In this document: piece by piece, positions 6 to 20,520 of the stretch | How the letters are laid out: every line of letters begins with the position of its first letter | Numbering within the stretch: the stretch's first letter is position 1 | NCBI GenBank assembly: GCA_035369845.1 | Contig: DAOOVD010000003.1 | Coordinates: forward strand, 2,244-66,243 | Direction of reading: 5' to 3' | DNA from: Bacillota bacterium | GTDB taxonomy: Bacteria > Bacillota > Desulfotomaculia > Desulfotomaculales > Pelotomaculaceae | Length of the DNA stretch: 64,000 nt | Notes under the pieces: generated by a model | What the model was told of the DNA's origin: nothing | The model's database searches: none | The model's input: the letters and a program-made list of their open reading frames with translations, nothing else | Position numbers and translations under genes: made by a program

Positions 6-995
6 CTACTTTATCCTCTTTATATTGCTGTTACTATTTTTATTTTTAACTTTCGGCATAACCATCTCACTGTCGCTCATAATGTCGTCGATGCAGTTCC
101 AAATGTCCGGCAATTGCGCAAACAGCACATAAGCGTCGGGAACGTGATTTTTGAGTGTACCGGCTACGTACTCGCGCATAACCTCGGCCGCCGGTTCCAC
201 TTCCCAACGCAGTTCGTCCAGCAAACGTTCGCAGTAGTCCAAATCGGCAGACGCGCCGACAATGATAACAGGCAGCAGAACCGACAACATTAACATTTCT
301 TTCTGTCCCACGCCCTCCGGCTGTATCTTGCACTTGGCCGGCACGGGCACTATGTTGTCGGGATACCTGAGTATCCTGTTTACATCACAAAATATTCTTT
401 CGAATTCTTCCGCTTTGAAGGGCGGTATGAACCGGTCACCGACGTACAACCTGATCCCCCGGCTTCTGAAAGGCGACAGTGGTTTGAAATCCGGCACAAC
501 CGCAAAAACGCTTCTCACATTCGCGGCAATGCGGCTTAATGTCCCGTGAGGCAAGCTTTCAGCCATTAACTGTATCTCGTTTTTGTTTTCTATAAACACC
601 GGTATGATTCCGTACAGCGTGAGGATACCCGTTTCTTCTTCCACCGGAGGCGATGGCATTACAGGATGTTTCTCCAGCAATGCGGACAGGACCTTCGGGT
701 TTTTTGCCACATCCAGCGCCCACGCGCTGTATGATTCCCGCTTCTTTGCCCAGTAAGGCTTTTTCTTCAGCCAATTTTTATACGTCTCCTTATCGAACGG
801 CACATGGACGATACGGACCGGTCTGCAAGATATTACGTCCAAACAATTCTGACGCTCCAGCAAATAATCTTTATATTCGTCCAGGCTGCGGCCCATCTCC
901 TTAAAGTCTTCCAGAGAGAACACCGCTGCCGCTACCAAACTGCCTTCAGCGGCAATACCCTGATAAATATCGTATGTTCTAATTTGAATCACCAT
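6..995 (-). CDS. Hypothetical protein, cassette component D2 (full-length paralogue of 5801-6475)
   Basis: 329-aa ORF with ATG start. The N-terminal ~185 aa align by eye with D1 (EGSLVAA, YKDYLLE, SAWAL.V.KNP, DRFI). I recognise no motif. Confidence 0.6.
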   Translation of the reverse strand: MVIQIRTYDIYQGIAAEGSLVAAAVFSLEDFKEMGRSLDEYKDYLLERQNCLDVISCRPVRIVHVPFDKETYKNWLKKKPYWAKKRESYSAWALDVAKNPKVLSALLEKHPVMPSPPVEEETGILTLYGIIPVFIENKNEIQLMAESLPHGTLSRIAANVRSVFAVVPDFKPLSPFRSRGIRLYVGDRFIPPFKAEEFERIFCDVNRILRYPDNIVPVPAKCKIQPEGVGQKEMLMLSVLLPVIIVGASADLDYCERLLDELRWEVEPAAEVMREYVAGTLKNHVPDAYVLFAQLPDIWNCIDDIMSDSEMVMPKVKNKNSNSNIKRIK

Positions 996-1082
996 TCCTT
1001 TCTGCCGCGCGGATGCCCCTGCCTTTAAGCGCGAGGTCTATGGCACTTCTTGCACCCTGCGAGTTTTGTAAACCCGGTCTTT

Positions 1083-2294
1083 TTACGCCGTCTTTTTCTT
1101 CTTATCCGGCAACACTCTGGGCTTCTCTTTCCATAACACCGTTTCGGTAGAAATTACGTACCTGCACCCTTCCGCCGGGTCGAACATGATGTCCAGCATC
1201 ACTTCTTCCATTACCGCCCGCAGTCCCCTGGCCCCGGTACCCCTCTCCAGCGCCTCCCGAGCCACTGCCTCCAAAGCGCCCGGCGTGAACTCCAGCGTAA
1301 CCCCGTCCGGCTTGAGAAGAGCCTGATACTGTTTCACCAGGGCGTTTTTTGGTTCGGTGAGTATCCGTACCAGGTCGGCTTCCGTCAGTTTGTCCACCGG
1401 CACCACAACTGGCAGCCTGCCGATAAACTCGGGGATGAAACCGTATTTTACAAGATCTTCGGTAGTTACATTTTCCAGATCGTTGCTGTTTTTGGTAGTT
1501 GGCAACACGCCGAAACCAATGAATTTTTTATTCGTTCTTTCACGGACGATACTGTCCAACCCGACAAAAGCCCCTCCACAAATGAAAAGTATGTTTTTGG
1601 TGTCAATTTGCATGCATTCCTGGTGAGGATGCTTGCGGCCACCCTGGGGCGGCACGTTTGCCGCGACGCCTTCCAGCAACTTCAACAACGCCTGCTGGAC
1701 GCCTTCGCCGGAAACGTCCCTAGTAATGGAGGGGTTTTCCGACTTGCGGGCGATCTTGTCTATCTCATCTATGTAGACAATACCTTTCTCGGCCTTTTCT
1801 ATGTTATAGTCCGCTGCCTGAATCAGTTTGAGCAGGATATTTTCCACATCCTCGCCAACGTAGCCGGTTTCTGTAAGCGATGTCGCATCAGTTATCGCAA
1901 AAGGCACCTTGAGCAGTTTCGCAAGGGTCTCCACCAGGTAGGTCTTTCCGCTGCCGGTCGGTCCTAAAAGCAGGACGTTGCTTTTCTGGATTTCTAAGCT
2001 GTTATCGTTGCAAGTAATTCTTTTGTAGTGGTTGTAAGCGGCTACCGCCAGTGCTTTTTTGGCTTTGTCCTGACTGATTACATACTTGTCCAGGTGCTCT
2101 TTAATTTCTTTGGGTTTAGGAATAACCATTTCCTGGTTAATTTCTAGCTCGTCCGCTAAAATTTCGTTGCACAGGTCTATGCACTCGTCGCATATGTGGA
2201 CGTTGGGGCCTGCAACCAGTTTGTTTACTTCGCTATGGAACTTGCCGCAAAACGAGCAGCGGATGGGTTTTTCGTTTGTTTTTGGTTTTGTCAA
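1083..2294 (-). CDS. clpX: ClpX-family AAA+ unfoldase, element-borne paralogue 2
   Basis: C4 zinc N-domain (CSFCGK..CDEC), Walker [12 protein letters not shown], pore-1 GYVGED, IGF loop (FIGFG), C-terminal KKKKTA. Start placed at TTG 2294, 8 nt after AAAGGAG, the same context as paralogue 1. The ORF track extends to 2324. Confidence 0.85.
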
Positions 2295-2313
2295 AACGCC
2301 AACAACTCCTTTT

Positions 2314-2343
2314 CTAAAATACAAAGACCCGGCTTTTGCCGGG
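2314..2343 (-). terminator. Possible intrinsic terminator between the 286-aa ParB-fold gene and clpX paralogue 2
   Basis: Minus strand reads CCCGGC-AAAA-GCCGGG followed by TCTTTGTATTTT. The stem is short (6 bp, GC-rich). Confidence 0.4.
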
Positions 2344-2399
2344 CGCGGGGTATGTATGGCAGCAGGAGCGCAAAGTCAAGAGTTAAACCGAAAGCTGGC

Positions 2400-3260
2400 T
2401 TAAAACAACCTCAGCCACATCTGAGTCAGCTGCTTCATGTGATACATACGCCAGCACCCAAAACGATATACGGTCTTTAAAGGCGGGTTTGATGATTTTG
2501 GGGAAAATATTTCTTTTGCCGGGGCTTCTAAAAGCCAGATTTTTGTTTTTGAGTGATCCGGCTCGATCAAAACCTCAGACTCTACAACGAGCCGGTCCAT
2601 GCGCCGGAAAATACCTCGCTTTTCCGATTTTCTACAAACTGAAACCTTATACTTAAACCCCGGGAAAAGCTCTACAAAAGAACCCTCTGTATTCTGAGGC
2701 ACATCCAGCCACGCTCCGCGAAAATCGAACGCACCTGCAATCATCCCCGGAGGGCTGCTTACCCATAAATAGGCAACTGTCCCCCTAACACCTTGAGGAT
2801 TCCGAAAGTTCAGACCAAAAGAAGAAGAAAAACAATAATGACCAGGCCTGCCTTCCGGCATCAACAAAGATTCGGTGTCCTCTTTTAGACGATACACAAC
2901 AGCTTTCAGATTTTTAACTCCGGCTCTCTTTGCCAAACACACGCGGTGCTTGCCTTCCGACACCCAAAACCGGCCTTCGTATTCCAGGAGCCGGATTGGA
3001 TCGCGTTCGGCGAACGGCGTCTCGCCTTTCTTAAATATTTCCCAAAACTTCCGGCAGCGGCTGTACCTCAGACAAATGTCGAGTGATTCAGGGCGTTTTG
3101 CATTTTCGACAAGCGCTTCGAGGATCTCTTCTTCGCTATTCCTGTAAGCGCTTAACCCTAACTCCTGCAGCAAAAGGCACCTGCTACCCAACTCGGACGG
3201 AAACTCAATAATATCCGAGACTTTTACAATACGAATTTCCGATTTTTGTTTTTGAACCAT
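2400..3260 (-). CDS. ParB/Srx-fold N-terminal domain protein with unknown C-terminal half
   Basis: 286-aa ORF. PIRLLEYEGRFWVSEGKHRVCLAKRAGVKNLKAVV resembles the ParB-like nuclease-domain GxHR core. The C-terminal ~160 aa carry no motif I recognise. Confidence 0.5.
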   Translation of the reverse strand: MVQKQKSEIRIVKVSDIIEFPSELGSRCLLLQELGLSAYRNSEEEILEALVENAKRPESLDICLRYSRCRKFWEIFKKGETPFAERDPIRLLEYEGRFWVSEGKHRVCLAKRAGVKNLKAVVYRLKEDTESLLMPEGRPGHYCFSSSFGLNFRNPQGVRGTVAYLWVSSPPGMIAGAFDFRGAWLDVPQNTEGSFVELFPGFKYKVSVCRKSEKRGIFRRMDRLVVESEVLIEPDHSKTKIWLLEAPAKEIFSPKSSNPPLKTVYRFGCWRMYHMKQLTQMWLRLF

Positions 3261-3288
3261 TGCTACCGCCTCGTTAATCCACTTTCCT

Positions 3289-3621
3289 TTAGCGACAACC
3301 CAATACTTTTTGCCTTATTTCTTCCAGAGCCGCTTTTGTCTCAGTAGAATAGTCAGCGTACGGCAAAACCTGATCCCTCTGGACAATGCCTTCGAAGTAC
3401 ATCTTCCAGTCGCTGCAGCGCTCGAAAAGCTGCATTTTGCAGCCGGGGTATTTTTCGGCGGCCTCCCGTATGGTGTCGGTAATGCCCGAGTTCCATTTCC
3501 CGCCGATAGGCATAAGCACGACTTCCTCTTCTTTGGTGAGCACCGCAAGAACAGCAAATACGCACGGATCAGTAAGATTTTTGACAGCTGTTAATGCTTT
3601 GTCTTTTGGTTCACCCATCAT
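3289..3621 (-). CDS. Hypothetical protein (110 aa), present only in cassette copy 2
   Basis: ORF packed tightly between neighbours on the same strand; no motif recognised. Confidence 0.5.
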   Translation of the reverse strand: MMGEPKDKALTAVKNLTDPCVFAVLAVLTKEEEVVLMPIGGKWNSGITDTIREAAEKYPGCKMQLFERCSDWKMYFEGIVQRDQVLPYADYSTETKAALEEIRQKVLGCR

Positions 3622-3656
3622 AGAATACCCCCATCCGGCCTGCTCTTGTCGAGTTT

Positions 3657-4493
3657 TTACCGTCTTGATAGGTCAACAATTATCAGTTCACCGCCTGCAG
3701 TATCTGGTTCCCCTGCGAAAAACGCTGCAATTTTGTCCGGTATGAGGTGCAGTGTCGCCTCGATATGCGGCTTCCACCAGTCAAATATTCCGTGCTCGCG
3801 GTGGTTCAGGCTTATTTCCAGTTGAATCTTCAGGGCGTGTTTCAGGCTTTTCTCGGCAATCTCCCTTAATTCGCGGGAAAACTCGCGCGTGACTTCGTGA
3901 TTCTTTGTGCAGCGGCCGATTATCTGGGCGGTATCTTCCAGCCGCTGCCGCTCTTTAAAAGTGATGCTCAAATACCCACGAGCCACGTCGCTCTTGAGGG
4001 CATTCCGCATGTAGCAGTCCTCTAAAAGCTTTAGACCGCAGACCGCTATGGCTTTAAAAAGCCAGTCCTCATTGCAGAAGGAATTCCTGAACAAATACGC
4101 TTTTTCTGCGCTGCCGACATACATTTTATCGGTCAGTTTTTTGGCCAGGTACTCGACGTATTGGCACAAATATCTGGCACTCCACACGCCCCCGGAAAAA
4201 TGAGCAGCCCTTTCCTTCCGGTACATCGTCACCAGCCCCGGTCGGACAAGCCTGTCCCTCCGTTTGGTGTCATTTAGCTGGGCAATGAGCATATTCTTGC
4301 TGGCAGTGCCCGGAGGTACTTTGTTTATAAGGTCGGCATAGTGAACGGTGTTCCAGTTTTTAGCCAGAAATATTTCATTCGCAATGTCCAGCTCTTCCTC
4401 GATTCTTTTCCTCGCCTGGATTTCAGCGAAACGCTCCACCTCCAGGAGATCGACAGGCTTCGGCTCAGTTGGAACTTGCAACCACTTCGACAT
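3657..4493 (-). CDS. Hypothetical protein, cassette component B2
   Basis: 278-aa ORF that aligns with B1 ([38 protein letters not shown]). It overlaps the 3' end of A2 by 29 nt, which suggests translational coupling. Confidence 0.6.
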   Translation of the reverse strand: MSKWLQVPTEPKPVDLLEVERFAEIQARKRIEEELDIANEIFLAKNWNTVHYADLINKVPPGTASKNMLIAQLNDTKRRDRLVRPGLVTMYRKERAAHFSGGVWSARYLCQYVEYLAKKLTDKMYVGSAEKAYLFRNSFCNEDWLFKAIAVCGLKLLEDCYMRNALKSDVARGYLSITFKERQRLEDTAQIIGRCTKNHEVTREFSRELREIAEKSLKHALKIQLEISLNHREHGIFDWWKPHIEATLHLIPDKIAAFFAGEPDTAGGELIIVDLSRR

Positions 4494-5856
4494 CTACGAC
4501 ACCACCCTTCAAGCTAACCCATTCTCTCATTTCCCCGGCAGCTTTCTCCAAGAGGCCGGCGCACTCCATAACGCTCCTGTAGACTTCGATGTCGCTGGAA
4601 TACCTGCTTATTTCGAGCTCTGCCCGCTTCATGTGTTTTCCAATATCCTGGACAAGGGACGACAGCATGTCCTGGATTTTGTAGCGGTCCTTCTGCAGGA
4701 TCTGAGAACGGGTGAGAGCAAGCAGTTCCTCGTTCTTCTTCTGCAGCTCTTGTTTGAGATTGAGGTAGTCCTCCGGAATCTTTTCAACAACCTTGGGCGG
4801 GCGGGATTTCAGCTCGGCAATCTTTTTGTTCAGTCCCGCAATCTGTTCCTGAAGGCTTTTTATCTTGGCATCGCGGGCGGCAATATCACCGTGCAGCTTT
4901 TCTTTGATTGCCTGCTGGGCTTTCTCGTATTTTTCTTTTGCTTCACGAGCCTTTACTTCAGCCTGCTCTCTGGCCTGTCTGTAGTCCTCGGCCCTTTTCG
5001 CCATCCGGGCCGCCTTTTCTTCCAACTCGCGGATTTTTTCTTCAGCCGCTCTGCGCTCTTCACGGCGGGCATCTTCGGCGACATCAGCCAGCCGGCTCTG
5101 CATGTCAGATAGCTCCCTCCGCACGTCGTGCAACTCGTCTTCGGCTTCTATGGCCCGGCTTTCCAGAGCCTGAGCGTCGGCTTTGGCCTGTTCCAGCTCC
5201 TTTTCTAACCGTTCCTTTTCCTCGACCTTTTTGCGCAGGTCCTTTACTTCTGCAACGGTCATGTCTGCGATTTGTTCCTTGATTTGCCGGTAAATTTCAG
5301 CCTGTGCCTCGGGCGACAGGTAAGCTACTTGCTCTGCTGCTGAGGTGCCAAGTTTACCGGAGGAAACCATTGCTTGGAATTCAGGTATTAGATCGTTGAG
5401 TTTGAGAAGACGATTTAAATGTGTAACATCTACACCAACAACCTCTGCTATATCTTTGGCCGTCTTAATTTCGCCATTTTGGCGAAATTTAGGCCCCTGT
5501 CTTACACCCCAGTATTCCTTTAAAAATGCCGCGCGTCTTGCTTTCTTCATTGGGTCGTCATCAGACTGGCGCCGTTCCTCGTTCTCTGCAATTAAAAGGT
5601 ATTCTGCCTCTTCTGGCGAGATGTCTTTGATTTCGATTGGTACTTTTTCTAACCCCAACTCTAAAGCAATTCGATACCGTTGGTGACCTGAGATGATTGT
5701 GTAGTCAGGTAAGACTTTGAGCGGATCGCGAATACCGTGAAAAGCAATACTGCGCTTAATCTCTTCGTACTTCTCCTGGGAAAGATCATTATAATACTCA
5801 TTATTTTTTGGGTGCGGTTTCAGAAGTTTCGGATTGATTTCCCCCATAACTCTCAT
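4465..5856 (-). CDS. ParB/Srx-fold N-terminal domain + HTH + long coiled-coil protein, cassette component A2
   Basis: LLKPHPKNNEYY..IISGHQRYRIALELG..LIAENEERRQ matches ParB N-domain boxes. This is followed by a probable HTH and ~200 aa of heptad-like E/K/A/R-rich sequence. ATG start is 4 nt after AGGGGGG. Confidence 0.7.
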   Translation of the reverse strand: MRVMGEINPKLLKPHPKNNEYYNDLSQEKYEEIKRSIAFHGIRDPLKVLPDYTIISGHQRYRIALELGLEKVPIEIKDISPEEAEYLLIAENEERRQSDDDPMKKARRAAFLKEYWGVRQGPKFRQNGEIKTAKDIAEVVGVDVTHLNRLLKLNDLIPEFQAMVSSGKLGTSAAEQVAYLSPEAQAEIYRQIKEQIADMTVAEVKDLRKKVEEKERLEKELEQAKADAQALESRAIEAEDELHDVRRELSDMQSRLADVAEDARREERRAAEEKIRELEEKAARMAKRAEDYRQAREQAEVKAREAKEKYEKAQQAIKEKLHGDIAARDAKIKSLQEQIAGLNKKIAELKSRPPKVVEKIPEDYLNLKQELQKKNEELLALTRSQILQKDRYKIQDMLSSLVQDIGKHMKRAELEISRYSSDIEVYRSVMECAGLLEKAAGEMREWVSLKGGVVDVEVVASSN

Positions 5857-6475
5857 TTACCCCCCTAAGATTGCTCTCTACATCGCTTCCTGTGTTTTTA
5901 CCTATAGCACCGCTGGTGATGAAACGGTCCGCGACAAATATTTTCAGCCCGCTGCAGCGCAGTTCGCTTAACTGCCGGAACGGAGGGCACGCTGAAAAAT
6001 ATTGCTGAAATTCGGCACGCACCAGTTCGACCAGACTCCGTGGCAACCGTCCGCTCATGGGATTCGTTGCTGCATCAGCGTGAATAGCCGTGGGAACTAT
6101 CCCGTATATGACCAGCACATTGGTCTTTTCGTGCAACGGCGGGGCGGGAAGATACGGGCGCTCACTGAGCAAATCGGCCAGCGCCTGAGGGTTCTTGACC
6201 ACTTCCAGCGCCCACGCGCTGTGAGCTTTCGTCGCGCTACCGGCTTTTTTCCAGCAAGGGTTGCTCTCGAGCCAGCGTTCGAAGCTGCCCCTGGAAAAAG
6301 GCACGCTGATAACGCGCACGGCGTCTGAATATATCAGCTCTGCTAAGAAATCCTGCCATTCTAAAAGATAATCTTTGTACTCGAGCCCGCCAGGGTAATC
6401 TTCGGGAAAATATACGGTCGCGGCTACAAGACTTCCTTCGCGGGCCACGCCCGGAAAAATGTCGTACTCCAGCAT
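5801..6475 (-). CDS. Hypothetical protein D1, C-terminally truncated paralogue of D2
   Basis: 224-aa ORF that aligns with D2 only up to ..DRFI. The remaining ~37 aa read through the intergenic spacer into the A2 5' end in another frame. Confidence 0.5.
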   Translation of the reverse strand: MLEYDIFPGVAREGSLVAATVYFPEDYPGGLEYKDYLLEWQDFLAELIYSDAVRVISVPFSRGSFERWLESNPCWKKAGSATKAHSAWALEVVKNPQALADLLSERPYLPAPPLHEKTNVLVIYGIVPTAIHADAATNPMSGRLPRSLVELVRAEFQQYFSACPPFRQLSELRCSGLKIFVADRFITSGAIGKNTGSDVESNLRGVNESYGGNQSETSETAPKK

Positions 6476-6509
6476 ACAAAATAACCCCCTATCTGCAAAC
6501 GGCAGTTCC

Positions 6510-7718
6510 TTATGCCGTCTTTTTCTTTTTGGCCGGCACCACTACGGGCTTTTCTTTCTGCAGGACGGCGGCTGCGGAAATCATATATTTGTGCCCCTCT
6601 TTCGGATCGAACATGATGTCCAGCATTAATTCTTCCATCACTGCCCGCAACCCCCTGGCGCCTGTAACCCTCTCCAGCGCTTTCCGGGCTATCGCTTCCA
6701 AAGCTCCCGGAGCGAACTCCAGCGTCACCCCGTCCGGCTCCAAGAGCGCCTGATACTGCTTTACCAGGGCATTTTTTGGCTCAGTAAGTATCCGCACGAG
6801 ATCGCCTTCGGACAGCGCATCCAGCGTCACTATAACCGGCAGCCTGCCGATCAACTCGGGAATAAAACCAAACTTAACCAGGTCTTCGGTCGCGACATCT
6901 TTTATGCCGCTATTTCCCTGCCTGAACGCCGAACCGAAACCAATGACTTTTTCGTTCGTCCTTTCCTGGACAATCTTATCCAGGCCAACGAAAGCGCCGC
7001 CGCAAACAAAAAGGATGTTAGCGGTGTTGATTTGTATGAATCCCTGGTGCGGGTGCTTGCGGCCGCCCTGCGCCGGCACATTCGCCACGGTACCTTCTAA
7101 AATTTTCAACAAGGCCTGCTGAACGCCTTCTCCGGAAACGTCCCTGGTGATGGACGGGTTTTCGGACTTGCGGGCGATTTTGTCAATCTCGTCAATGTAC
7201 ACTATCCCCTTTTCGGCTCTTGCAACATCGTAGTCCACTGCCTGGATGAGCTTCAGCAGGATGTTCTCCACGTCCTCGCCTACGTAGCCGGCTTCGGTAA
7301 GAGAGGTGGCATCGGCGATAACAAAAGGCACCTTAAGCAGCTTTGCTAAGGTCTCCACCAGGTAGGTCTTGCCGCTGCCGGTCGGCCCCAAAAGCAGGAC
7401 GTTGCTCTTCTGGATCTCCAAATTGCTGCCGTGGCTGAGCCTCTTGTAGTGGTTGTAGGCCGCTACGGCCAGGGTTTTCTTCGCCTTATCCTGGCCAACC
7501 ACGTATTTATCTAGTTGCTCCTTGATTGTCTTGGGTTTGGGAACGATTATTTCCTGTTTGACCTCAAAGTCTTCTTCCATCATAATTTCGTTGCATAAGC
7601 AAATACATTCGTCGCAAATATATACTCCCGGCCCGGCGACGAGCTTTTTGACCGCATCCTGAGCCTTGCCGCAAAAGGAACAATGAGGGGGTTTATCGTT
7701 TGTTCTTGATTTTACCAA
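6510..7718 (-). CDS. clpX: ClpX-family AAA+ unfoldase, element-borne paralogue 1
   Basis: CSFCGK..CDEC zinc domain, [22 protein letters not shown] (IGF loop), KKKKTA tail. Start placed at TTG 7718 after AAAGGAG. The upstream part of the track ORF (to 7847) overlaps B1 and looks non-coding. Confidence 0.85.
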
Positions 7719-7747
7719 AGTACCAACATCTCCTTTTTGGCTAATGG

Positions 7748-8632
7748 TTAACACTCTACCTGCTGAGAGATCAGCATCTGCCCTGAAAAATCCAGCGCTA
7801 CCCTCTCGATCACCAAACCTACAGTGCTTTCGATTTTCGGCAGCCACTTTTCGAGCAGGGCGTATTCTTCGTGTGCATGGTTAATTTCCAGAAAACTGCG
7901 GTACGTATTTTTTAGAAACTGCTCCAGTGTACTGTCCAACTCGTTCTTCATCTCTTCTATCTCGTGATTCTTTGTACTGCGCCCGATGGTGGCACTGAGG
8001 CTTTTTGCCACAGCCCGAACATAGAACAGAAGGTCCAGATGGGACTTCGCTACAGTACTTTTTATAGCTCCACGCCGGTAATTGTTCTCCAGAAGTTTAA
8101 GGCCGCAGACGGCAGCAGCCTTGTAGAACCAATCTGGGTCGGAAAAAGATTTTTTGAATACCAGGGCATTGCTTTTACCGACATATTTTGGGTCAGTTAA
8201 TTTCTTGACAACGTATTCCATAAACAAACAAAAATTGCGGGCTATCCACACCCCGCCGTCGAAATGGTCGCGGTTCTCTAGTTGATAAAGAGTTACTACG
8301 CCCGGCCTGGTCTTGCCGTTTCTTGTATAATCATTCAGCCAAGCAACCAGCTTGCTTTTGCTGGCAAGACCTTCCGGAACGTCGGACATTAAATCGGCAT
8401 AAAATATAGCATTGCAATGTTTGATCAGGTATACCTCGATAGCCACGTCAAGCTCGTGCTCTATCCTCTTTTGCGTCTCTGCGGCAATGAGTTTCTCCGG
8501 CGCCAGAAGCGTCAGTGCGCCGTCTGAACCCAACGACAGAAACGACTTTTTGGGCAGCAAATCATTAAACGACAACTTCAATATAATCGCCTCCCGCTCT
8601 CGCATCCAGCGATACCATGTTGCGCAGTTCAC
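7748..8632 (-). CDS. Hypothetical protein, cassette component B1
   Basis: 294-aa ORF, paralogue of B2. The exact start is uncertain because it overlaps the A1 3' end. Confidence 0.6.
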
Positions 8633-10079
8633 CGGCTATTTTTATCAAAAGGTCTGCGCAGTCCATAACATCTTTGTAGGCAACCGTATCTATAGACCGC
8701 CGCTCCATTTCATAACGTAGTTTGGTGACGTGTTTGCCTACGTCCTGCGCTATCTTCGTTACGATTTCCCGTACCCAGTAGCGGTCCTTTGTTTCAATTT
8801 GTTCCCTGGTCAGGCCGAGCAGCTCCGATTCGGCTTTTTCTTTTTCTTTCTTCAGGGTTTTAATCGTCTGCTTTAGTTCCTCATAATCCTCGGGCACTTT
8901 TTCAACTACTTCCGGCGGGCGGGATTCTAGTTCGACAATCTTCTTGTTCAGCTCCGCGATCTGTTCCTGAAGACTTTTTATCTTGGCGTCCCGGCTGGCA
9001 AGATCTTTGCGAAAACGTTCTTCAACGGCCCGGTGGGCATTGGTCAGCTTTTCTTCTATTTCCCTAACTTTGGCCTCGGCCTTTTCTTTATCCTGCTTGA
9101 GTTTTTCTGCCCTCTCAGATAACCGGTTCACTCTTTCCTGAAACTTGACAATTTCTTCCTCAACCGCCTTTTGTTCTTCTTTCCTTGCATCTTTTATGGC
9201 TTCTTCCATCCGGTTCTGAACATCGGAAAGCTCCCTGCGCACGTCATGCAGCTCGTCTTCAGCTTCGATGGCCCGGTTTTCCAGAGCCTGAGCATCGGCT
9301 TTGGCCCTTTCCAACTCCTTTTCCAGTTGCTCCTTTTCCTCGACTTTCTTGCGCAGTTCCTTTATTTCTGCAACAGTCATATCCGCAATTTGTTCTTTGA
9401 TCTGGCGGTAAATTTCAGTCTGCGCTTCGGGTGACAGATAGGCTACCTGCTCGGCTGCTGAGGTGCCCAGTTTACCGGAAGAAACCATTGCCTGAAATTC
9501 AGATATCAGGTCGTTGAGTTTTAAAATGCGTTTAACCGCCTTTTCGTTCGGCAGACCCAAAGCCTTTGCGATATCTTCGAGTGTTTTACCAGTATCTGTA
9601 TTTTTCAAGAGGACATTTTGTCCTCTTGAAATTTCCGAAAATTTTCCAGTATGCCTATCCCATCTCTTGCCGCCCCAGCCGACTTCCCAATACTTAGCCA
9701 GAAACTTTGCCCTTTTTGCCACCTTCATCGGGTCGCCACCGCCCTGCCGCCGCTCTTCGTTGTCAGCTATAAGCAGGTAAGTGATAATCTCTTCCCATTC
9801 TTCTTCGGTTTCAGCTCTCGGCCGGATCTCCTGGAACGGTACCTCTTTCAACCCTAGTTCCAGAGCTATGCGCAGCCGTTGGTGACCGGACACTACGGTG
9901 TTGTCCTCCAGTATCCACAGCGGTGTCCTGATTCCACCGGCCTCTATGCTCCGGCGGACCTCCTGGTATTTATCATTGTCCAGATCATCGTAGAACTCGG
10001 CATTTTTCGGGTGAGGTTTTAGCAGCTTTGGATCTATTAAACCCTCCTTGATTATGTCATATATTTTAGCATCGAGCAT
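8565..10079 (-). CDS. ParB/Srx-fold N-terminal domain + HTH + coiled-coil protein, cassette component A1
   Basis: LLKPHPKNAEFY..VVSGHQRLRIALELG..LIADNEERRQ, HTH-like KTLEDIAKALGLPNEKAVKRIL, and a long coiled coil. The central ~110 aa are nearly identical to A2. Confidence 0.7.
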   Translation of the reverse strand: MLDAKIYDIIKEGLIDPKLLKPHPKNAEFYDDLDNDKYQEVRRSIEAGGIRTPLWILEDNTVVSGHQRLRIALELGLKEVPFQEIRPRAETEEEWEEIITYLLIADNEERRQGGGDPMKVAKRAKFLAKYWEVGWGGKRWDRHTGKFSEISRGQNVLLKNTDTGKTLEDIAKALGLPNEKAVKRILKLNDLISEFQAMVSSGKLGTSAAEQVAYLSPEAQTEIYRQIKEQIADMTVAEIKELRKKVEEKEQLEKELERAKADAQALENRAIEAEDELHDVRRELSDVQNRMEEAIKDARKEEQKAVEEEIVKFQERVNRLSERAEKLKQDKEKAEAKVREIEEKLTNAHRAVEERFRKDLASRDAKIKSLQEQIAELNKKIVELESRPPEVVEKVPEDYEELKQTIKTLKKEKEKAESELLGLTREQIETKDRYWVREIVTKIAQDVGKHVTKLRYEMERRSIDTVAYKDVMDCADLLIKIAGELRNMVSLDARAGGDYIEVVV

Positions 10080-10150: not shown

Positions 10151-10456
10151 TTAATTTGTCTGTCGCATGATGATGCCAGCAATTGCACATTCCCTTATCG
10201 CTCGGTTGGCCTGTTTGTACCTTTCGTAAGCAATCTTTGCCTCATGATTTTCATCGACATCAGCAAAGAAAGCATCCAGCTTTGATTCCAACGATTTATC
10301 AGCAAGCAGGTTACGCAAATTATGTTGTTCTCCAGACACCCCACTGGAAATATAAAACGAAACTGCTTTAATCAGGTTCTGTTCAAAAGCTTTCCAAAAT
10401 GGATCAACACGGTTATGTTGTTCAAAAACAGCCTTTTCTTCCGATTGTTTGTACAT
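10151..10456 (-). CDS. Hypothetical protein (101 aa)
   Basis: ATG-initiated ORF with helical-looking composition; no motif recognised. Confidence 0.5.
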   Translation of the reverse strand: MYKQSEEKAVFEQHNRVDPFWKAFEQNLIKAVSFYISSGVSGEQHNLRNLLADKSLESKLDAFFADVDENHEAKIAYERYKQANRAIRECAIAGIIMRQTN

Positions 10457-10871: not shown

Positions 10872-11681
10872 TTAGCCAACCAGTTCAATCAACTTTTCCC
10901 GCAACCACTCCGCTCCTGGCCCTCCCTTTGCAATGACGCTTTCGACCTTTGCATAAACCTTTTTTGCCTCCTGTATTTCGTCTGCTTCTTCCTTTTTTGC
11001 AATGTCTTTGAATTCATCGCTTGCCTCCTCTTCGATAATCAGTTTGCGCATCTGTCTGGTGCTCAGATGCTCGTCGGCAGCCCTGGCTAAGATTTCATAA
11101 GGGTCTTTCTTAGACGTTAACGCAATATTGTGGTGCTCAAACTTCAGGCCAGGTATCCGCATGCTTTCTTCGGGAAAAGCCTTGTAAACCTTCACATATT
11201 TTCTTATAAAAGAAACGCTTACATTTAGTTGCGATGCCAGCCACTTAACACTTACCCCAGTGGACAATAGGGCATCCAGCAACTGCGCTTTGGTCCACTT
11301 TATGTCAATTTCCTGTTCGTCTAGCGATATGTACGCCTGAATCAATTCCTCAATTCCAGGTTCCTGCTCTTTCTCCGACAGCGGAGGGAATTTGTCGGGT
11401 ACCGGTATTTCGATGGCCCGGCAGACTTCCTCGGGTGTTGTTTTCTCCCGCCTGGCAACTATCTGAACAAGCACCAGCCGGTCAATTTTATATTCCTGGG
11501 CGGCCCGGTGGTGCTCCGGGCACAGCCTGATTCTGTTTAACAATATGTCTTTACCGCCTGTACCTCTGGTTTTAATATGGTGCGTCTCGACGTAACCCGG
11601 TTTGCCGCAGTATTCGCACCAGGCAACCGGTTCTTCCAGTTCGTAAGCAGGTTTATTAAGCGGAATAGTTGCAAGCTCCAA
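10872..11681 (-). CDS. HNH endonuclease fused to a helix-turn-helix-like C-terminal half
   Basis: CEYCGK..ETHHIKTRG..NRIRLCPEHHRAAQ is an HNH/Cys-box pattern. The C-terminal region (SVKWLASQLNVSVSFIRKYVKVY .. LSTRQMRKLI) is HTH-like. Confidence 0.7.
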   Translation of the reverse strand: MELATIPLNKPAYELEEPVAWCEYCGKPGYVETHHIKTRGTGGKDILLNRIRLCPEHHRAAQEYKIDRLVLVQIVARREKTTPEEVCRAIEIPVPDKFPPLSEKEQEPGIEELIQAYISLDEQEIDIKWTKAQLLDALLSTGVSVKWLASQLNVSVSFIRKYVKVYKAFPEESMRIPGLKFEHHNIALTSKKDPYEILARAADEHLSTRQMRKLIIEEEASDEFKDIAKKEEADEIQEAKKVYAKVESVIAKGGPGAEWLREKLIELVG

Positions 11682-11709: not shown

Positions 11710-11943
11710 TTATAACCGATCTTTTAGTACTCGCAAGGTGCGCGACTTGCCTGGTTCGAAATCGATGTATCCCTGTCGCCTAATTTTTGTAAGATGTTCG
11801 TGAATAGTTGCTGACGATCTTAACCCAACTATTGCACCTATTTCCCTAACCGACGGCGAGTAACCCTTAACCTGGATAAATTCTCGTATTGCATTGTAAA
11901 TTTTTTGCTGGATCTCAGTCAAACTAAAACACCCCTCAACCAA
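11710..11943 (-). CDS. LexA-type winged-helix DNA-binding domain protein with no peptidase domain
   Basis: 77 aa. LTEIQQKIYNAIREFIQVKGYSPSVREIGAIVGLRSSATIHEHLTKIRRQGYI matches the LexA N-terminal domain. The ORF ends before any S24 Ser/Lys domain. Confidence 0.7.
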   Translation of the reverse strand: MVEGCFSLTEIQQKIYNAIREFIQVKGYSPSVREIGAIVGLRSSATIHEHLTKIRRQGYIDFEPGKSRTLRVLKDRL

Positions 11944-11949
11944 TTGGCC

Positions 11950-12210
11950 TTATGCTGTCATTTCCAGCTCAGTTATGCCCCGCTTTAAGTACAGCACTTT
12001 AACTCCGCGCCTCTTCGCCTCTTTTTTGACATAATGCATGGCTTTGTGGCTTATGAATCCGGTCAGGATTATGACTAGATCAACCATCGGCAGGGCAAAC
12101 ACCTTCTTGCTCCTGCCGTCCCAGTGCAGCACTTCTTCGGCGCCGAATTTTTTCTTAAGATAATCAGCTTTTGTGCCCAGGTTGTCAGCGCCCACAACCA
12201 AACATCGCAT
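11950..12210 (-). CDS. DUF2325-like small protein
   Basis: MRCLVVGADNLG..LVIILTGFISHKAMHYVKKEAKRRGVKV resembles the DUF2325 pattern. Start set at ATG 12210, which overlaps the stop of the upstream ORF (TGATG). The track ORF extends to 12270. Confidence 0.55.
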   Translation of the reverse strand: MRCLVVGADNLGTKADYLKKKFGAEEVLHWDGRSKKVFALPMVDLVIILTGFISHKAMHYVKKEAKRRGVKVLYLKRGITELEMTA

Positions 12211-12407
12211 CACTTTACACTCCTTTCCCTGTTTTTTTTGGGATATATACTGCCTTTTTTCATTTCCCACTCTACCGGACTATAAAACCTGGTCTTTTTT
12301 TTGATGCCCATCCTAACCAGCACAGGCCCTTTTCTGTCGAACATCCTGGCAATGTACTCCAACTGCTCAGGTGTGAAATCAGCAGGACTGCCTTTGAACC
12401 TTTCCAT
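12210..12407 (-). CDS. Hypothetical small protein (65 aa)
   Basis: ORF whose stop overlaps the next start, which suggests translational coupling; no motif recognised. Confidence 0.4.
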   Translation of the reverse strand: MERFKGSPADFTPEQLEYIARMFDRKGPVLVRMGIKKKTRFYSPVEWEMKKGSIYPKKNRERSVK

Positions 12408-12451: not shown

Positions 12452-14671
12452 TCAATTTTCTGCAACCTGATTTTGCAACCATATGCCAGAATTTTCGATT
12501 CTATCCCTGAGCTTTGTGTTTCTCGCTGACAACTTATTGTTTCTAACCGCTATCCAATAAGCTTTTTTGGTCCCTACCAGCACCACTTTTTCCTTGGCCC
12601 TCGACACCGCCGTGTAAATGAGCTTGCGGTTCAGCATGATATAGTGGCTGGTCGTCAGGGGGATCACCACCGCTTTGAACTCCGACCCCTGGCTTTTGTG
12701 GGCAGTGATCGCATAGGCCAGTTCCAGGTTGTGCAGCTCGCTTTTGCCGAACTCTACATCGCCTTGATGTTCAAAGTAAACCGTAATGCCAGCGGCTTCT
12801 CCGTTTTCGTTTTCTATCACGCGACTGATAATGCCGGTCTCGCCGTTAAAGACGCCGTACTCGCCCTTTTCGTAATTGTTTCGGACGCATATAACCCGGT
12901 CGCCAACCCGGAATACGGCATCGCCGCAAGTGATTTCTCTCCCTCCTGCCTTGCTGCTTGGGTTTAACCTTTCCTGCAACATGCGGTTTAGCGTTATAGT
13001 TCCGACTGGACCGTTCTTCATAGGAGACAGCACCTGTATATCATCCAGGGAGTAACCGAGTTTTAAAAACCTCATAACGCATCCGACAATTGTCCTGGTG
13101 ATTTCCTCCGGCTCGCTTTTCTCGATGAAATAAAAATCACCCCTGCCATGGTCGGGGTAAAAAACCTTCCCTTTATTTATTGCGTGCGCTCCGGTCACAA
13201 TCTGGCTTTGCGATGCCTGCCGGAACACTTTCTCCAACCTCACCGCAGGCACTCCCGCCGCCAGGAGATCAGCCAGGACATTGCCCGGCTCGACCGAAGG
13301 CAGCTGGTCGGCGTCGCCCACAAGCAACACGCGCGTGTCCTCGCCAACTGCGTCGAACAACATCTTCGCCATGCTTACGCCCATCATGGACACCTCGTCT
13401 ACGACCAGGAGGCCGCAGGGCAAAGGGCTGCTCCTGCAGTATGCCGGCGTTGGCGCGCCCGGCCTGAAACCCAACAACCTGTGGACCGTGCTCGCGCCCC
13501 TGCCGGTCACCTCGGCCAGCCTGCGGCTGGCCTTGCCGGTGGGCGACGCCAGGAGGACGGGTTTGCCGAAAAGGCTTTCGTAAACGCTTATCACTGCTTT
13601 TACGGCAGTGGTCTTGCCAACGCCGGGGCCGCCGGTCAAGATCAGCAGGTTGTTGTTCATCAGGCTAACCACGACCTGCTTCTGCTCGCTAGAAAGCCTT
13701 ATGCCTTCCCTAAGCTCGTACTGTTTAACGAGCCTTTCGACTTTTTCCGGCAAAATGACATCTTTCCGAGGCTTTAACATCGACCTAGCGCTCTCCGCCA
13801 GCAAAACTTCGTCTTTGTATAGCTTGGGAGTGTAGACTGCATTATCTTCTATTACCAGCCTGTCGCTACTGGACAGGTGCTTAAGCATATTGTCCACCTG
13901 TTCCCTTGTGACGCATTTCTTTTTATGATTCAGCAGTTTTAAGGCTTTTCCCAATAACTCTTCTCTTGTCGCATAGCAATAGCCGTTGTCCCAGATTATT
14001 TCTTTGAGCGACTGGCGGATTGCGCCTGCAATTCGGCCCGTGCTGTCAAGGGATACGCCCAAGCCCTGGGCGATGGCGTCAGCCTTCAGAAACCCGATGC
14101 TGTCTACTTCCATAAGACAGTACGGATTCCGCTTGACCAGCTCTGCAGTAGCGCCGCCGAACTTTTTATGTGCTTTCATGGCGGCATTGACGGATATGCC
14201 GAGCGGCAGGAGTTGCGATACAATCCTCTGGGCTTCGTAGGCGCCTCTCACGCTTTCATAGACTTCCTGGGGCTTCCGTAAACCTTTTATACCTGCAAGC
14301 GCTTCAACGCCTTTTTCCATGATGTTTTTTACCGCCTCGGCACCGAGTTTTTCGACGATCCTCTTGGCAGTGACCGGGCCGACTCCTTTAATCAGGCTGG
14401 AGGACAGAAATGCAATAGCCTGTTCTTCAGTGGTGGGTACGATACGCTCCCAGGTATCTACCCTAACCTGGCGGCCGTACTTCTGATGTACGTACCATTC
14501 ACCTTTTACAAAAATCCTCTCTTTTTCCTCCGCACTGTAGAGATTACCAGATATGATTGCCTGCTTGTCGTTATAAACAAACAGAGCGACGTGATAGTCA
14601 TCGCTTCTGCTTTTAAAATAAAAACGGGTTACATGACCTTCGGCTGAAAACGATTCTTTTGTTTCTTCCAA
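12452..14671 (-). CDS. RecD2-like SF1B DNA helicase
   Basis: 739 aa. N-terminal OB/HhH region (IKGVGPVTAKRIVEKLG), Walker A LTGGPGVGKTT, LLVVDEVSM, VLLVGDADQLPSV, and C-terminal AITAHKSQGSEF..YTAVSRAK. Confidence 0.85.
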   Translation of the reverse strand: MEETKESFSAEGHVTRFYFKSRSDDYHVALFVYNDKQAIISGNLYSAEEKERIFVKGEWYVHQKYGRQVRVDTWERIVPTTEEQAIAFLSSSLIKGVGPVTAKRIVEKLGAEAVKNIMEKGVEALAGIKGLRKPQEVYESVRGAYEAQRIVSQLLPLGISVNAAMKAHKKFGGATAELVKRNPYCLMEVDSIGFLKADAIAQGLGVSLDSTGRIAGAIRQSLKEIIWDNGYCYATREELLGKALKLLNHKKKCVTREQVDNMLKHLSSSDRLVIEDNAVYTPKLYKDEVLLAESARSMLKPRKDVILPEKVERLVKQYELREGIRLSSEQKQVVVSLMNNNLLILTGGPGVGKTTAVKAVISVYESLFGKPVLLASPTGKASRRLAEVTGRGASTVHRLLGFRPGAPTPAYCRSSPLPCGLLVVDEVSMMGVSMAKMLFDAVGEDTRVLLVGDADQLPSVEPGNVLADLLAAGVPAVRLEKVFRQASQSQIVTGAHAINKGKVFYPDHGRGDFYFIEKSEPEEITRTIVGCVMRFLKLGYSLDDIQVLSPMKNGPVGTITLNRMLQERLNPSSKAGGREITCGDAVFRVGDRVICVRNNYEKGEYGVFNGETGIISRVIENENGEAAGITVYFEHQGDVEFGKSELHNLELAYAITAHKSQGSEFKAVVIPLTTSHYIMLNRKLIYTAVSRAKEKVVLVGTKKAYWIAVRNNKLSARNTKLRDRIENSGIWLQNQVAEN

Positions 14672-14811: not shown

Positions 14812-15714
14812 TTACCTTGCGGCTTTTTTCGTAAAAGAAACTGTTCCGGGTTCCTTCTTTGGCACCAGGAATTTGCTGTTCTTTTGGTCAAAGGCCAGTT
14901 CGATTACTTCGCAGTTGCCAAATCTGTTTTTTATTACTACAAGTTCGACATTATTTGTTTTCTTGGGATCGCTGGATTTGACGAGGTTAATCGCTACATC
15001 AACGTCATAGTCAATATCTCCAGACTCCTTGAATCCATAGGCCATTTTATCTCCGTAATACGCGGCTCTGCTCAAGCCACTGATGAGCATAACCCCGACG
15101 TCTTTTTCATCTCCAGCAAGGCGCTGGAATTCTGCGCTTGCATTTGCTACTGCTATTCGGGGATCGTTTTCATGTCTGGTCTCGGCCAATTTCTGGAGGT
15201 AATCAACGATTACCAGGAATTTTGCATCCGGTTCTTTCTCTCTCCGGTACCCGTTGATTATTTCCAGGATCATTTTTACCGAAAAATTTTTGTCTATCTT
15301 TTTGAAGCAAATCCTGCCCTTTGTTGCTGTAAAGTGCTCTCGACCAGCTTTTTCAAAAACTTTCAGATCTCCCAACCCTCTAGTGTAAGCCGTTACATCG
15401 AGGTTGGAATATTGGCATATCATCCTGGTATGTAAATTCTCCAGTTTATTCTCAGCGAAGCAGTAGATGATCACTGAATCATCGAATTTAGCAACGTTGG
15501 TTGCTATCTGAAGGGCCAATGCAGTCTTGCCTACACCTGGTTGACCGCCGATTACTACCACACTGCCGGGATTAATCCCGTTTATCATGGCATCCAGATC
15601 AGGAATTCCGGTGGAAAATCCAGTGAAGCACCTTCCCGTGCTTTGAGCAGCATCTTTTCGTAACTGGCATTCTTTCACGGTCATTTCCAGTGATCTATCT
15701 AACCAAACGTCCAA
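14812..15714 (-). CDS. DnaB/RepA-type RecA-fold replicative helicase-like ATPase (C-terminal domain only)
   Basis: GIPDLDAMINGINPGSVVVIGGQPGVGKTALALQIA, LVIVDYLQ, MLISGLSR. Start placed at TTG 15714, 8 nt after AAGGAGG; ATG 15684 is an alternative. The track ORF (to 15798) runs into origin repeats. Confidence 0.7.
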   Translation of the reverse strand: MDVWLDRSLEMTVKECQLRKDAAQSTGRCFTGFSTGIPDLDAMINGINPGSVVVIGGQPGVGKTALALQIATNVAKFDDSVIIYCFAENKLENLHTRMICQYSNLDVTAYTRGLGDLKVFEKAGREHFTATKGRICFKKIDKNFSVKMILEIINGYRREKEPDAKFLVIVDYLQKLAETRHENDPRIAVANASAEFQRLAGDEKDVGVMLISGLSRAAYYGDKMAYGFKESGDIDYDVDVAINLVKSSDPKKTNNVELVVIKNRFGNCEVIELAFDQKNSKFLVPKKEPGTVSFTKKAAR

Positions 15715-15736
15715 AACTAAAACCTCCTTGAGAAGG

Positions 15737-15777
15737 AAGAGGGAGTGGCGGGTATTTATTGCCCGCCACTCCCTCTT
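15737..15777. repeat. Perfect 16-bp inverted repeat with a 9-nt loop, inside the origin region
   Basis: aagagggagtggcggg - tatttattg - cccgccactccctctt. No U-tract follows on either strand. Confidence 0.9.
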
Positions 15778-15778
15778 G

Positions 15779-15805
15779 AAGATCTTAAAGATCTTCAAGA
15801 TCTAC
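15779..15805. repeat. Three tandem 9-bp repeats, each containing AGATCT (a GATC site)
   Basis: aagatctta aagatcttc aagatctac. Confidence 0.9.
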
Positions 15806-19028: not shown

Positions 19029-19433
19029 ATGGAATTAGAAAAAAGCCGGATGTTTGTAAAAAGGCTGAAACAGGAAAGAGAAATAAAGGGAATCACTCAA
19101 AAAGAATTAGGAGCATTGCTTGGGGTAACTGACCGAGCTGTTGGCCTCTGGGAAACAGGCAGGCGCATGCCCGATGCTGATATGCTTTTGAAGCTAGCCG
19201 AGATTTTTGATTGCACTGTTGATTATCTGCTCGGTGCTACGAATGAACGGAAATCTCGTACTGGCACTGATTTTGATCCTGAAATGGCTGAAATATTTAA
19301 TCGAGCTAAAAAATTAAGCCCAGAGGGGCGGGAATATTTCAAAAAAGCCGTTAAATGGATTTTTGAAGTCGATAAGGATAGGGAAGCATTGAAAAAATTA
19401 AAGGGAAAGGCAAAAAAAGATTTTATGAACTAG
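19029..19433 (+). CDS. XRE-family HTH repressor-like protein (ImmR/CI-like, rightward)
   Basis: KGITQKELGALLGVTDRAVGLWETGRRMPDADMLLKLAEIFDCTVDYLLG. AAGGAGAGG lies upstream of the ATG. Confidence 0.8.
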   Translation: MELEKSRMFVKRLKQEREIKGITQKELGALLGVTDRAVGLWETGRRMPDADMLLKLAEIFDCTVDYLLGATNERKSRTGTDFDPEMAEIFNRAKKLSPEGREYFKKAVKWIFEVDKDREALKKLKGKAKKDFMN

Positions 19434-19688
19434 TTATGCTTATATCCCTGTCCTCGAGGGGGGGGTGAGTATGTCTTCCATGCGTTACGTTACACGGACA
19501 GTTTTTTGTAAGTGGCCTCAGTTGAACGGGGCTGCCTGCTGGTTTTACCGGTAGAATCCTTCGATTTTGGTCGAACCAGGCTTCACATAATACAATTATT
19601 GTCTTCCTGTGACTATTATGGTAATATTAGCAATAGAACATTTGTTCTGTTCATTAAAACCAAAACCTTCAAGAAAGGAGCTGTACTG

Positions 19689-20510: not shown

Positions 20511-20520
20511 GGTGATCAAA

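Follow-up and report, generated by a model that had tools for sequence, protein, structure and literature searches.

Why does a conjugative element carry two complete genes for ClpX, each followed by a gene of no recognized family? This question is raised by a double gene cassette in a 64,000-nucleotide stretch of DNA (the window, from contig DAOOVD010000003.1) of a Desulfotomaculia-type Firmicute. The double cassette lies in the long early operon of an element that is integrative and conjugative (an ICE). It encodes twice a ParB-type protein (A), a helical protein (B), a ClpX and a protein of a new family (D). The list of open reading frames (ORFs) of the window places all ten genes on the minus strand, at the coordinates first given for them by a reading of the sequence alone (the sequence-only reading). 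That reading had paired the genes by eye. BLASTP establishes the pairs as true paralogues, with amino acid identities of 58% over 493 aa for A1 and A2 (E 3e-165), 45% for B1 and B2 (E 1e-73), 77% for ClpX-1 and ClpX-2 (E 0) and 41% over 187 aa for D1 and D2 (E 7e-48), and the motifs that had been quoted are present in the alignments. We propose that D docks on ClpX by its C-terminal tail and delivers a bound target to ClpXP, or is itself processed, and we estimate the probability of this reading at about 0.45.

ClpX-1 (6510-7718, minus strand, 402 aa) and ClpX-2 (1083-2294, minus strand, 403 aa) both match zf-C4_ClpX, AAA_2 and ClpB_D2-small in Pfam, the zinc domain (PF06689) with 65-66 bits. 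They score 609.3 and 610.8 bits against the NCBIfam ClpX equivalog NF003745 (cutoff 359) and 588 and 592 bits against TIGR00382 (cutoff 370.75), and solved ClpX structures are matched at an E value of 1e-155. In an alignment with E. coli ClpX, the four zinc cysteines of both copies align with C14, C17, C36 and C39. Walker A (GPTGSGKT), Walker B (DEID), the pore-1 loop (GYVG), the pore-2 segment, the RKH loop and sensor-2 (GARGLR) are kept in both copies, and the arginine finger [FL]IGRLPV reads ELIGRLPV in ClpX-1 and EFIGRLPV in ClpX-2. The IGF loop, at E. coli positions 268-270, reads VIGFG and FIGFG, respectively. The ClpX proteins of two of the related loci that we compared with the window (numbered with an L, here L007 and L024) have the same motifs with minor conservative changes: GPTGCGKT in L007, a variant that occurs in housekeeping ClpX too, and ELVGRLPV/EFLGRLPV. 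The ratio of nonsynonymous to synonymous divergence (dN/dS) is 0.09 for ClpX-1 against ClpX-2 and 0.20 against the L017 orthologue. Both ClpX copies are complete and under purifying selection, and the earlier claim of completeness holds in a proper alignment. As also claimed earlier, neither ClpP nor ParA is visible among the element genes scanned; ClpP was not called in L015, L016 or L024 either. Because the IGF loop is kept and the element is without ClpP, the element ClpX would use the ClpP of the host.

The two genes lie on a mobile element and outside the housekeeping context, as the sequence-only reading had recognized. Compared with the housekeeping ClpX of the tig-clpP-clpX-lon context, they have the same domain set and the same catalytic, pore, RKH and IGF motifs, and both window copies score above the equivalog cutoffs. 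In contrast to housekeeping ClpX, the window copies sit on an ICE with no adjoining clpP, tig or lon, and there are two of them in one element. Among 8000 scored relatives, only five clusters (P0010-P0014) are 87-90% identical to ClpX-1. No housekeeping ClpX, be it from Desulfofundulus, Moorella, Desulfallas or another genus, exceeds 69% identity to the mobile ClpX. The housekeeping proteins sampled for the identity matrix, from Desulfofundulus, a Desulfotomaculales metagenome-assembled genome (MAG) and Neomoorella, are 83-92% identical to one another and 416-420 aa long, whereas mobile ClpX is 400-405 aa long with several small deletions and falls outside the housekeeping cluster in a neighbour-joining tree. 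A recent capture of a host clpX is ruled out by this low identity to every housekeeping ClpX and by the placement of mobile ClpX in the tree. An element-borne ClpX is not without precedent, because giant phages carry ClpX, and in that respect the window resembles the jumbo phages and megaphages (Bacillus phage G, gp258, and the Lak phages, among others), whose ClpX gene likewise sits on a mobile genetic element. Those carriers are virulent giant phages, and their ClpX proteins are 52-58% identical to ClpX-1; unlike them, the window ClpX has an ICE as its carrier and a linked candidate adaptor. One further relative, P0015, is a 557-aa protein of a Limnocylindrales MAG that is annotated as ClpX, scores 722 bits against ClpX-1 and has many extra P-loop Pfam matches. 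It may be a fusion or an assembly artefact.

The gene that follows each ClpX encodes D. D2 (6-995, minus strand, 329 aa) is a D-family protein at full length, while D1 (5801-6475, minus strand, 224 aa) is a shortened D-family gene without the C-terminal domain and tail. A profile search run exhaustively over 1.84 billion representatives returned 58 representative D clusters, and the D profile had no match in IMG/VR, plasmids or the JGI metagenome contig set. B, D and two extra genes of the cassette match no Pfam, PHROG or NCBIfam family, permissive thresholds included, and B and D match none in PADLOC either, so that B and D are not ordinary annotated proteins. The AF2 (AlphaFold 2) model of D2 (pLDDT 76, pTM 0.73) has two alpha/beta domains, with pLDDT values below 50 for residues 308-329; it has no fold match in the PDB or BFVD at E<=0.001. 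A short motif, [LIF]-x-R-[IVL]-K-COOH, ends 40 of the 48 full-length D representatives, 34 of these in the form L-x-R-[IV]-K. Among the 40 motif-bearing tails, K at position -1 is invariant (40/40), R at -3 and I or V at -2 are each found in 39, and L at -5 is found in 36. Over the 25 residues before the tail, length is variable and E, G, K, R, D and P are abundant. In D2, the motif is I-K-R-I-K-COOH, encoded by the last five codons (9-23, minus strand). It is also specific to D: among 1091 stop-to-stop ORFs of at least 80 codons from the window and all fetched loci, the motif stands at 14 ends, all 14 of D genes, and at none of the 1077 others.

Is there a known protein with such a tail? SspB is a tethering adaptor of ClpXP in Proteobacteria, and we know of no SspB in the Firmicutes. 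E. coli SspB, translated from MG1655, ends in PPQPPRGGRPALRVVK, its last residues being RGGRPALRVVK. This peptide directly binds the ClpX N-domain (PMC3983244), and a disordered region precedes it (PMC9963277). Like SspB, D would combine a folded body with a long disordered linker, acidic or charged, and a brief conserved peptide that closes the chain. Where SspB finishes with L-R-V-V-K, D finishes with L-[RK]-R-[IV]-K; L at -5, an aliphatic residue at -2 and K at -1 are common to the two. The zinc N-domain, to which the SspB peptide binds, is retained in the partner ClpX. Unlike SspB, D is found on Firmicute mobile elements, often adjoining a private ClpX. B. subtilis and mycobacteria are without an SspB homologue, yet E. 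coli SspB delivers tagged proteins to their ClpXP (reviewed in PMC8138137, which cites Griffith and Grossman, 2008 and Kim et al., 2011). Because E. coli SspB works with the ClpXP of B. subtilis, Firmicute ClpX can dock such tails. The SspB-like architecture and tail thus point to D as most likely a ClpX-tethered adaptor or substrate. The sequence-only reading had proposed B and D alike as adaptors or substrates of ClpX. For D, the proposal has gained support from the tail; B is linked to A only.

In the mechanism that we propose, a private complete ClpX would form one module with D, the next gene in line. The tail of D would dock on the zinc domain of ClpX, that of the element's own ClpX if present and otherwise that of the host enzyme. 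Docked D would then present its specific cargo protein to ClpXP, which would degrade or remodel it, either upon activation of the element or upon its arrival in another cell; alternatively, D itself would be processed. On this reading, a module for targeted protein degradation would be brought in, or hijacked, by mobile elements.

The linkage to clpX, on which the earlier proposal turned, is kept elsewhere. L015-L019 each carry one cassette, A-B-ClpX-D followed by RecU, with ClpX before D as in both copies of the window. The order is D then ClpX in L007 and L008, and ClpX-RecU-x-HNH in front of D in L024. The ClpX proteins of the four D-linked lineages are 62-77% identical to one another. The 17.8 kb of L024 hold ClpX and D without A-B, while the contig of L007, with its 3.6 kb, is not long enough to decide. 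Neither ClpX nor A-B is an obligatory neighbour of D. In L013, the order is HNH-D-RecU with no nearby ClpX; in L012, D adjoins a Dam methylase, a PD-(D/E)XK nuclease and a tyrosine integrase; and it adjoins UvrD in L021 and DnaN in L023. A-B likewise occurs without ClpX, in L001 (methylase-A-B-RecU-DprA-like), L029 and L030. Since A-B and D each occur without ClpX, the cassette consists of two separable modules, and the association of ClpX with D is recurrent, not obligatory.

Such separability would also be expected if ClpX and D were not functionally coupled at all. The region between HNH and RecU would then be a recombination hot spot of these ICEs that gathers unrelated accessory genes, ClpX would be a cargo that boosts host proteostasis, for example in thermophilic spore-formers, and the D tail would serve another partner. 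Occurrence of A-B without ClpX (L001, L029, L030) and of D without ClpX (L012, L013, L021, L023) is in line with this, as are insertion sequences (IS), HNH insertions, truncations and mosaic A alleles in the same region, and the close orthology, with 85-91% identity, of most A-B-ClpX-D loci. However, ClpX is one gene in thousands, and it lies 0-3 genes from D, in three different gene orders, in four lineages whose ClpX identities are those given above; the D tail fits the one known class of peptides that docks on the N-domain which these ClpX proteins retain; and the mobile ClpX proteins are an old, diverged set and not recent host captures. We therefore consider a mere gathering of unrelated genes unlikely.

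Several observations weigh against the tethering of D to ClpX. The tail of D has R at -3 where SspB has V, and the body of D shares neither sequence nor fold with SspB: searches of Pfam, NCBIfam, the PDB and BFVD (E<=0.001) revealed no homology between the two, and D is not an SspB homologue. In five lineages or more (L001, L012, L013, L021 and L023), no ClpX lies near D. It stands next to RecU at least as consistently as next to ClpX, so part of the ClpX linkage may be inherited synteny among related elements. D is cut short beside an intact ClpX both in the window (D1) and in L015, which suggests that ClpX is not strictly in need of D. Type IV secretion system (T4SS) genes occur in related loci, and none is found in this contig, which stops 2.2 kb past D2. 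Finally, the basic C-terminus of D could instead be a ClpX degron, as in MuA, or a secretion signal.

Substrates of conjugative T4SSs must be unfolded and often have positively charged C-termini. If the basic tail were a type IV secretion signal, D, perhaps together with A, would enter the recipient with the DNA and would be unfolded by the element ClpX. The element family is conjugative and K and R abound in the final ~15 residues of D, both of which fit this possibility. On the other hand, the near-constant R at -3 and the preferences at -1 and -5 (K in 40/40 and L in 36/40 tails) make up a precise pentapeptide and not mere charge, this motif ends no other ORF of these elements, and the L012 element, which encodes D, has a tyrosine integrase and no visible T4SS. 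A secretion signal is therefore highly improbable.

The evidence of the tail would serve just as well if D were a blocker of the ClpX N-domain, that is an anti-adaptor or inhibitor, or a timed substrate. The tail would then fill the zinc domain and shield element proteins from the ClpXP of the host, or it would make D short-lived. Free XB peptide, the ClpX-binding end of SspB, inhibits the degradation of such N-domain-dependent substrates as lambda O and FtsZ (PMC3983244), and D is often encoded without a private ClpX. This alternative leaves the presence of a complete extra ClpX with an intact N-domain beside D unexplained, however, and the large conserved body of D, with its two predicted domains, would exceed the needs of a blocker. 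We regard it as quite unlikely.

Within the lineages of the window, D proteins paired with a private ClpX have tails that deviate most from the rest. The tails of the copy-1 orthologues read HLTRLK and that of D2 reads NIKRIK, while D proteins not linked to ClpX have the standard L-[KR]-R-[IV]-K. The deviant tails (LTRLK and IKRIK) of privately paired D, a very small sample, may mark insulated, co-evolved ClpX-D pairs.

What, then, is the role of A and B? A1 (8565-10079, minus strand, 504 aa) is a ParA-less ParB-type protein with a ParB N-terminal domain of the CTPase fold, a helix-turn-helix (HTH), a coiled coil of ~200 aa and a small C-terminal domain that ends in EVVV; A2 (4465-5856, minus strand, 463 aa) is the second such protein. 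In Pfam, A2 matches ParB_N with 39.5 bits and HTH_ParB with 25.4 bits, above the cutoffs, while A1 matches ParB_N only below the threshold and has a ParB-like match in PHROG. The TIGR00180 model (parB_part) gives 44.1 bits for A2, below its cutoff of 58.45, and no match for A1. Among PDB structures, the profile of the A family picks out the N-terminal CTP-binding domain of chromosomal ParB, at an E value of ~1e-6, and A contains the ParB-box variants LKPHPKN, SGHQR and [AD]NEERRQ. A1 is 86% identical to the L015/L017 orthologue, with a dN/dS of 0.10. No ParA-type protein was found among the scanned element genes or in the related loci.

B1 was listed as an ORF at 7748-8632 (minus strand); gene callers on the source contig begin it at 8581, which gives 7748-8581 and a helical protein of 277 aa. 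B2 (3657-4493, minus strand, 278 aa) is the second member. Packing on the one strand is tight: the start of B1 overlaps the end of A1 by 17 nt and that of B2 overlaps A2 by 29 nt, and the remaining gaps are 28-105 nt. The A1/B1 overlap suggests translational coupling. Only four B clusters were found among 5.8 billion proteins, and B had no match in phages (tblastn) or IMG/VR (profile). The AF2 model of B is of low confidence (pLDDT 49), too low to assign a fold. B is always directly downstream of an A gene, in three divergent lineages: the B1 type, the B2 type and an L030/L031 type with ~46% identity to both. In our model, A-B would be a second module, in which A is coupled in translation to a private helical partner.

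The sequence-only reading had gone further and supposed that a nucleoprotein complex formed by the ParB-type A is remodelled or degraded by ClpX, for which B and D serve as adaptors or substrates. The A-B-ClpX-D block is indeed kept in at least six contigs, and copy-1-type A proteins share a hydrophobic end, Y-[IV]-E-[VI]-V-V-COOH, conserved among them, which we take to be reminiscent of the nonpolar C-degrons of ClpX. This does not outweigh the occurrence of A-B without ClpX or D in L029, L030 and pAACI02, a plasmid of Alicyclobacillus on which an A homologue lies upstream of YdjM-like and ATPase genes, or that of ClpX and D without A-B in L024. Furthermore, no feature of B points to ClpX. 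Remodelling of a ParB-type complex is not supported and appears very unlikely to us.

The A C-terminus deserves mention in its own right. Copy-1-type A proteins end in D-Y-[IV]-E-[VI]-V-V-COOH (8565-8590 of the window, minus strand) and A2 ends in VEVVASSN; the hydrophobic end might be a degron or an interaction peptide. L030 is, after the window, a second locus with two A-type genes, at 200-1433 and 6645-7988. One is accompanied by B, the other is an A-like gene that lies further on, downstream of an Eco57I-type methylase, and DivIVA-like and NUDIX genes lie between the two. Orphan methylases adjoin A in L001 and L030. Such methylases are typical of the early-entering regions of conjugative elements (PMC11541004).

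A ParA-less ParB-like protein of a conjugative element has been described recently. HerB (YfjB of plasmid F) is a CTP-binding HTH protein with a novel dimerization domain that acts in new transconjugants; its homologues are reported in Proteobacteria, not Firmicutes, and its authors define family membership by at least 80% coverage of each of four domains (preprint PMC13370423). An hhalign comparison aligned A columns 34-186 with HerB residues 56-194 at a probability of 70.6%, and BLASTP of A against HerB gave no match. With only the ParB-like N-terminal domain and the HTH aligning, A is ruled out as a member of the HerB family, and is by its sequence better described as an analogue of HerB. 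As in HerB and in KorB-type regulators, a ParA-less ParB-like protein with an N-terminal CTP-binding-fold domain and an HTH is encoded on a conjugative element, and as in HerB its C-terminal oligomerization part would be non-canonical. Unlike HerB, A has the long coiled coil and the small C-terminal domain in place of D3-D4 of HerB, a dedicated partner B, and, in box II, GHQR where HerB has GERR. If HerB and KorB are a guide, A is probably a DNA-loading clamp or a regulator of the element. The sequence-only reading knew of no described system with the composition of the cassette. With HerB described (PMC13370423), the ParA-less ParB part is less exotic than first thought. Among known systems, SspB-ClpX comes nearest in its mechanism, and module A has its nearest counterparts in ParB-like proteins of the HerB type; what would be new is a mobile-element ClpX together with a candidate tethering partner of a new family.

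How did the element come to have two cassettes? They had been described as a tandem duplication. The synonymous sites between the copies are saturated, with synonymous divergence (dS) of 1.6 for ClpX and 2.7 for A and undefined for B and D. The proteins of the single cassettes of L015-L019 are 85-91% identical to those of window copy 1, and their D has 337 aa. D1 matches only the first ~185-193 residues of these orthologues (1-193 in tblastn); the earlier pairing of D1 with D2 stands as homology, but D1 is not an intact gene. A DNA identity of 91% to L015/L016/L017 spans ClpX-1 into D1 and ends at window position 5922, 65 nt before the start of A2. The saturated sites together with this breakpoint rule out a recent tandem duplication in situ and instead place the junction of two long-diverged lineages inside D, at 5857-5921 (minus strand), just upstream of the start of A2. 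From these comparisons, the two copies appear to be an old duplication or a chimeric juxtaposition of two lineages. In our reading, recombination between two long-diverged element lineages within D made the double arrangement; at the same time, it shortened D1 and left ClpX-1 without an intact cognate D.

Other signs of exchange are found in the related loci. The A allele of L016 (7736-9190) is mosaic, with A1-like ends and an A2-like central linker and HTH region, and the protein is 76% identical to A2 over residues 5-254. This suggests recombination between cassette lineages. Insertions of the IS607 or IS200/IS605 type lie in or next to the same variable region at L015:4071-6156, L016:5048-6130 and L013:11018-12992, and carry a TnpB/Cas12f-like TNB with a resolvase-type or Y1 transposase. 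RRXRR-HNH genes recur in L013, in L015 and at the end of the contig of the window; in L015, one stands at the point where D is cut to 215 aa.

The two extra genes are present in copy 2 only, at 3289-3621 (minus strand, 110 aa) and 2400-3260 (minus strand, 286 aa). BLASTP and hhalign against the ParB domain of A ruled out the 286-aa product as a further ParB-like protein. The 110-aa gene was not found in the related loci. A PADLOC scan of the cassette revealed coiled-coil and generic AAA noise only, and a known defence or anti-defence system was rejected on this basis; for the 110-aa gene, the single match was the sub-significant Aga_SIR2 (E 0.0077, 13.6 bits).

The genes upstream of the cassette identify its carrier. 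On the minus strand follow a 101-aa gene (10151-10456) and, as assigned by Pfam, an HNH protein (10872-11681), a LexA-type protein (11710-11943), a DUF2325 gene (11950-12270), a RecD2-type helicase (12452-14671) and a DnaB_C helicase (14812-15798). On the plus strand lie an HTH_3 repressor-like gene (19029-19433), an M78/ImmA-like peptidase (19512-20510) and a large serine recombinase (20512-22419). The HNH protein has 269 aa, with an N-terminal HNH motif and a long C-terminal part without a family match, and is 62-75% conserved in L013 and L015. Its homologue in L013 lies directly upstream of D, in the slot of the whole double cassette of the window. The LexA-type protein has 77 aa, consists of the DNA-binding domain only (PF01726, 76 bits; no peptidase domain) and is encoded between the DUF2325 and HNH genes. 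The N-terminal fragments of LexA after self-cleavage are classic ClpXP substrates, and this protein could be a non-cleavable LexA mimic or a regulator.

The element ends at the recombinase. At ~22 kb, the G+C content goes up from 0.41-0.52 to values mostly of 0.52-0.60, and host DNA starts after ~22.4 kb, where the first host gene encodes an SLT transglycosylase (22895-23596) and is followed by DUF169, ComEA, YetF, POR and sigma-54 activator genes. The recombinase, the G+C shift and the host genes beyond it agree on this boundary. The single tRNA gene, tRNA-Ala(GGC) at 43115-43189 (minus strand), lies in the host part and has no relation to the element boundary. At the other side, the source contig, which is metagenomic, runs 2.2 kb beyond D2, over DUF6847, RecU and RRXRR genes. 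Parts of the backbone are common to the window and related loci, including the 101-aa gene (96% identity) and the HNH protein (75%), and L024, a more distant relative than L015 and L016, has the RecD2 helicase and DUF2325 domain families in common with the window. Downstream in L015 (a 1.13-Mb contig of a Peptococcaceae MAG), L016 and L024 lie YdjM, PrgI or T4SS_pilin, a VirB4-like P-loop_TraG/AAA_10/DUF87 ATPase and an SLT+M23 hydrolase. No relaxase was recognized among the scanned genes.

Positions 1-22500 of the window had no megablast match among 50,697 phage records. A prophage origin was rejected, as there is no phage record and no IMG/VR match and the related loci carry T4SS genes; the same two lines of evidence argue for an ICE in place of a phage. 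The element resembles ICEBs1 in that a repressor, an ImmA-like metallopeptidase and a recombinase lie at one end, divergent from a long operon, and ICEBs1-type elements in having its own helicases and, in related loci, T4SS genes of the Firmicute type. Unlike ICEBs1, it has a serine and not a tyrosine recombinase. ClpX, D and the ParB-like A-B pair are, to our knowledge, no part of ICEBs1. We take the element to be an ICE whose regulatory end resembles that of ICEBs1.

ClpXP is central to the biology of mobile elements, as exemplified by Mu transposase, lambda O, repressor fragments and antitoxins. As far as we know, it is the enzyme and the adaptors of the host on which the elements rely in all these cases. 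It is a tentative and somewhat doubtful extension of our reading that D is the first native Firmicute family to dock on ClpX by an SspB-type tail, that it is specific to mobile elements, and that these elements redirect ClpXP, with the ClpX of the host or a private orthogonal one, against a defined host, competitor or self protein. A defence factor, a repressor or a recombination protein would then come into question as the target, at activation or on entry. If true, targeted proteolysis would be a transferable function under the control of the element, and a family of conjugative elements would bring its own complete ClpX and a partner with an SspB-type tethering tail. The motif L-x-R-[IV]-K-COOH is short and C-terminal; it can be searched for in other proteins and makes the hypothesis directly testable. 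The family may in addition supply natural ClpX-tail pairs, possibly orthogonal ones, with which degradation could be engineered in Gram-positive bacteria, and it would open a route to targets among defence proteins, regulators and recombination enzymes.

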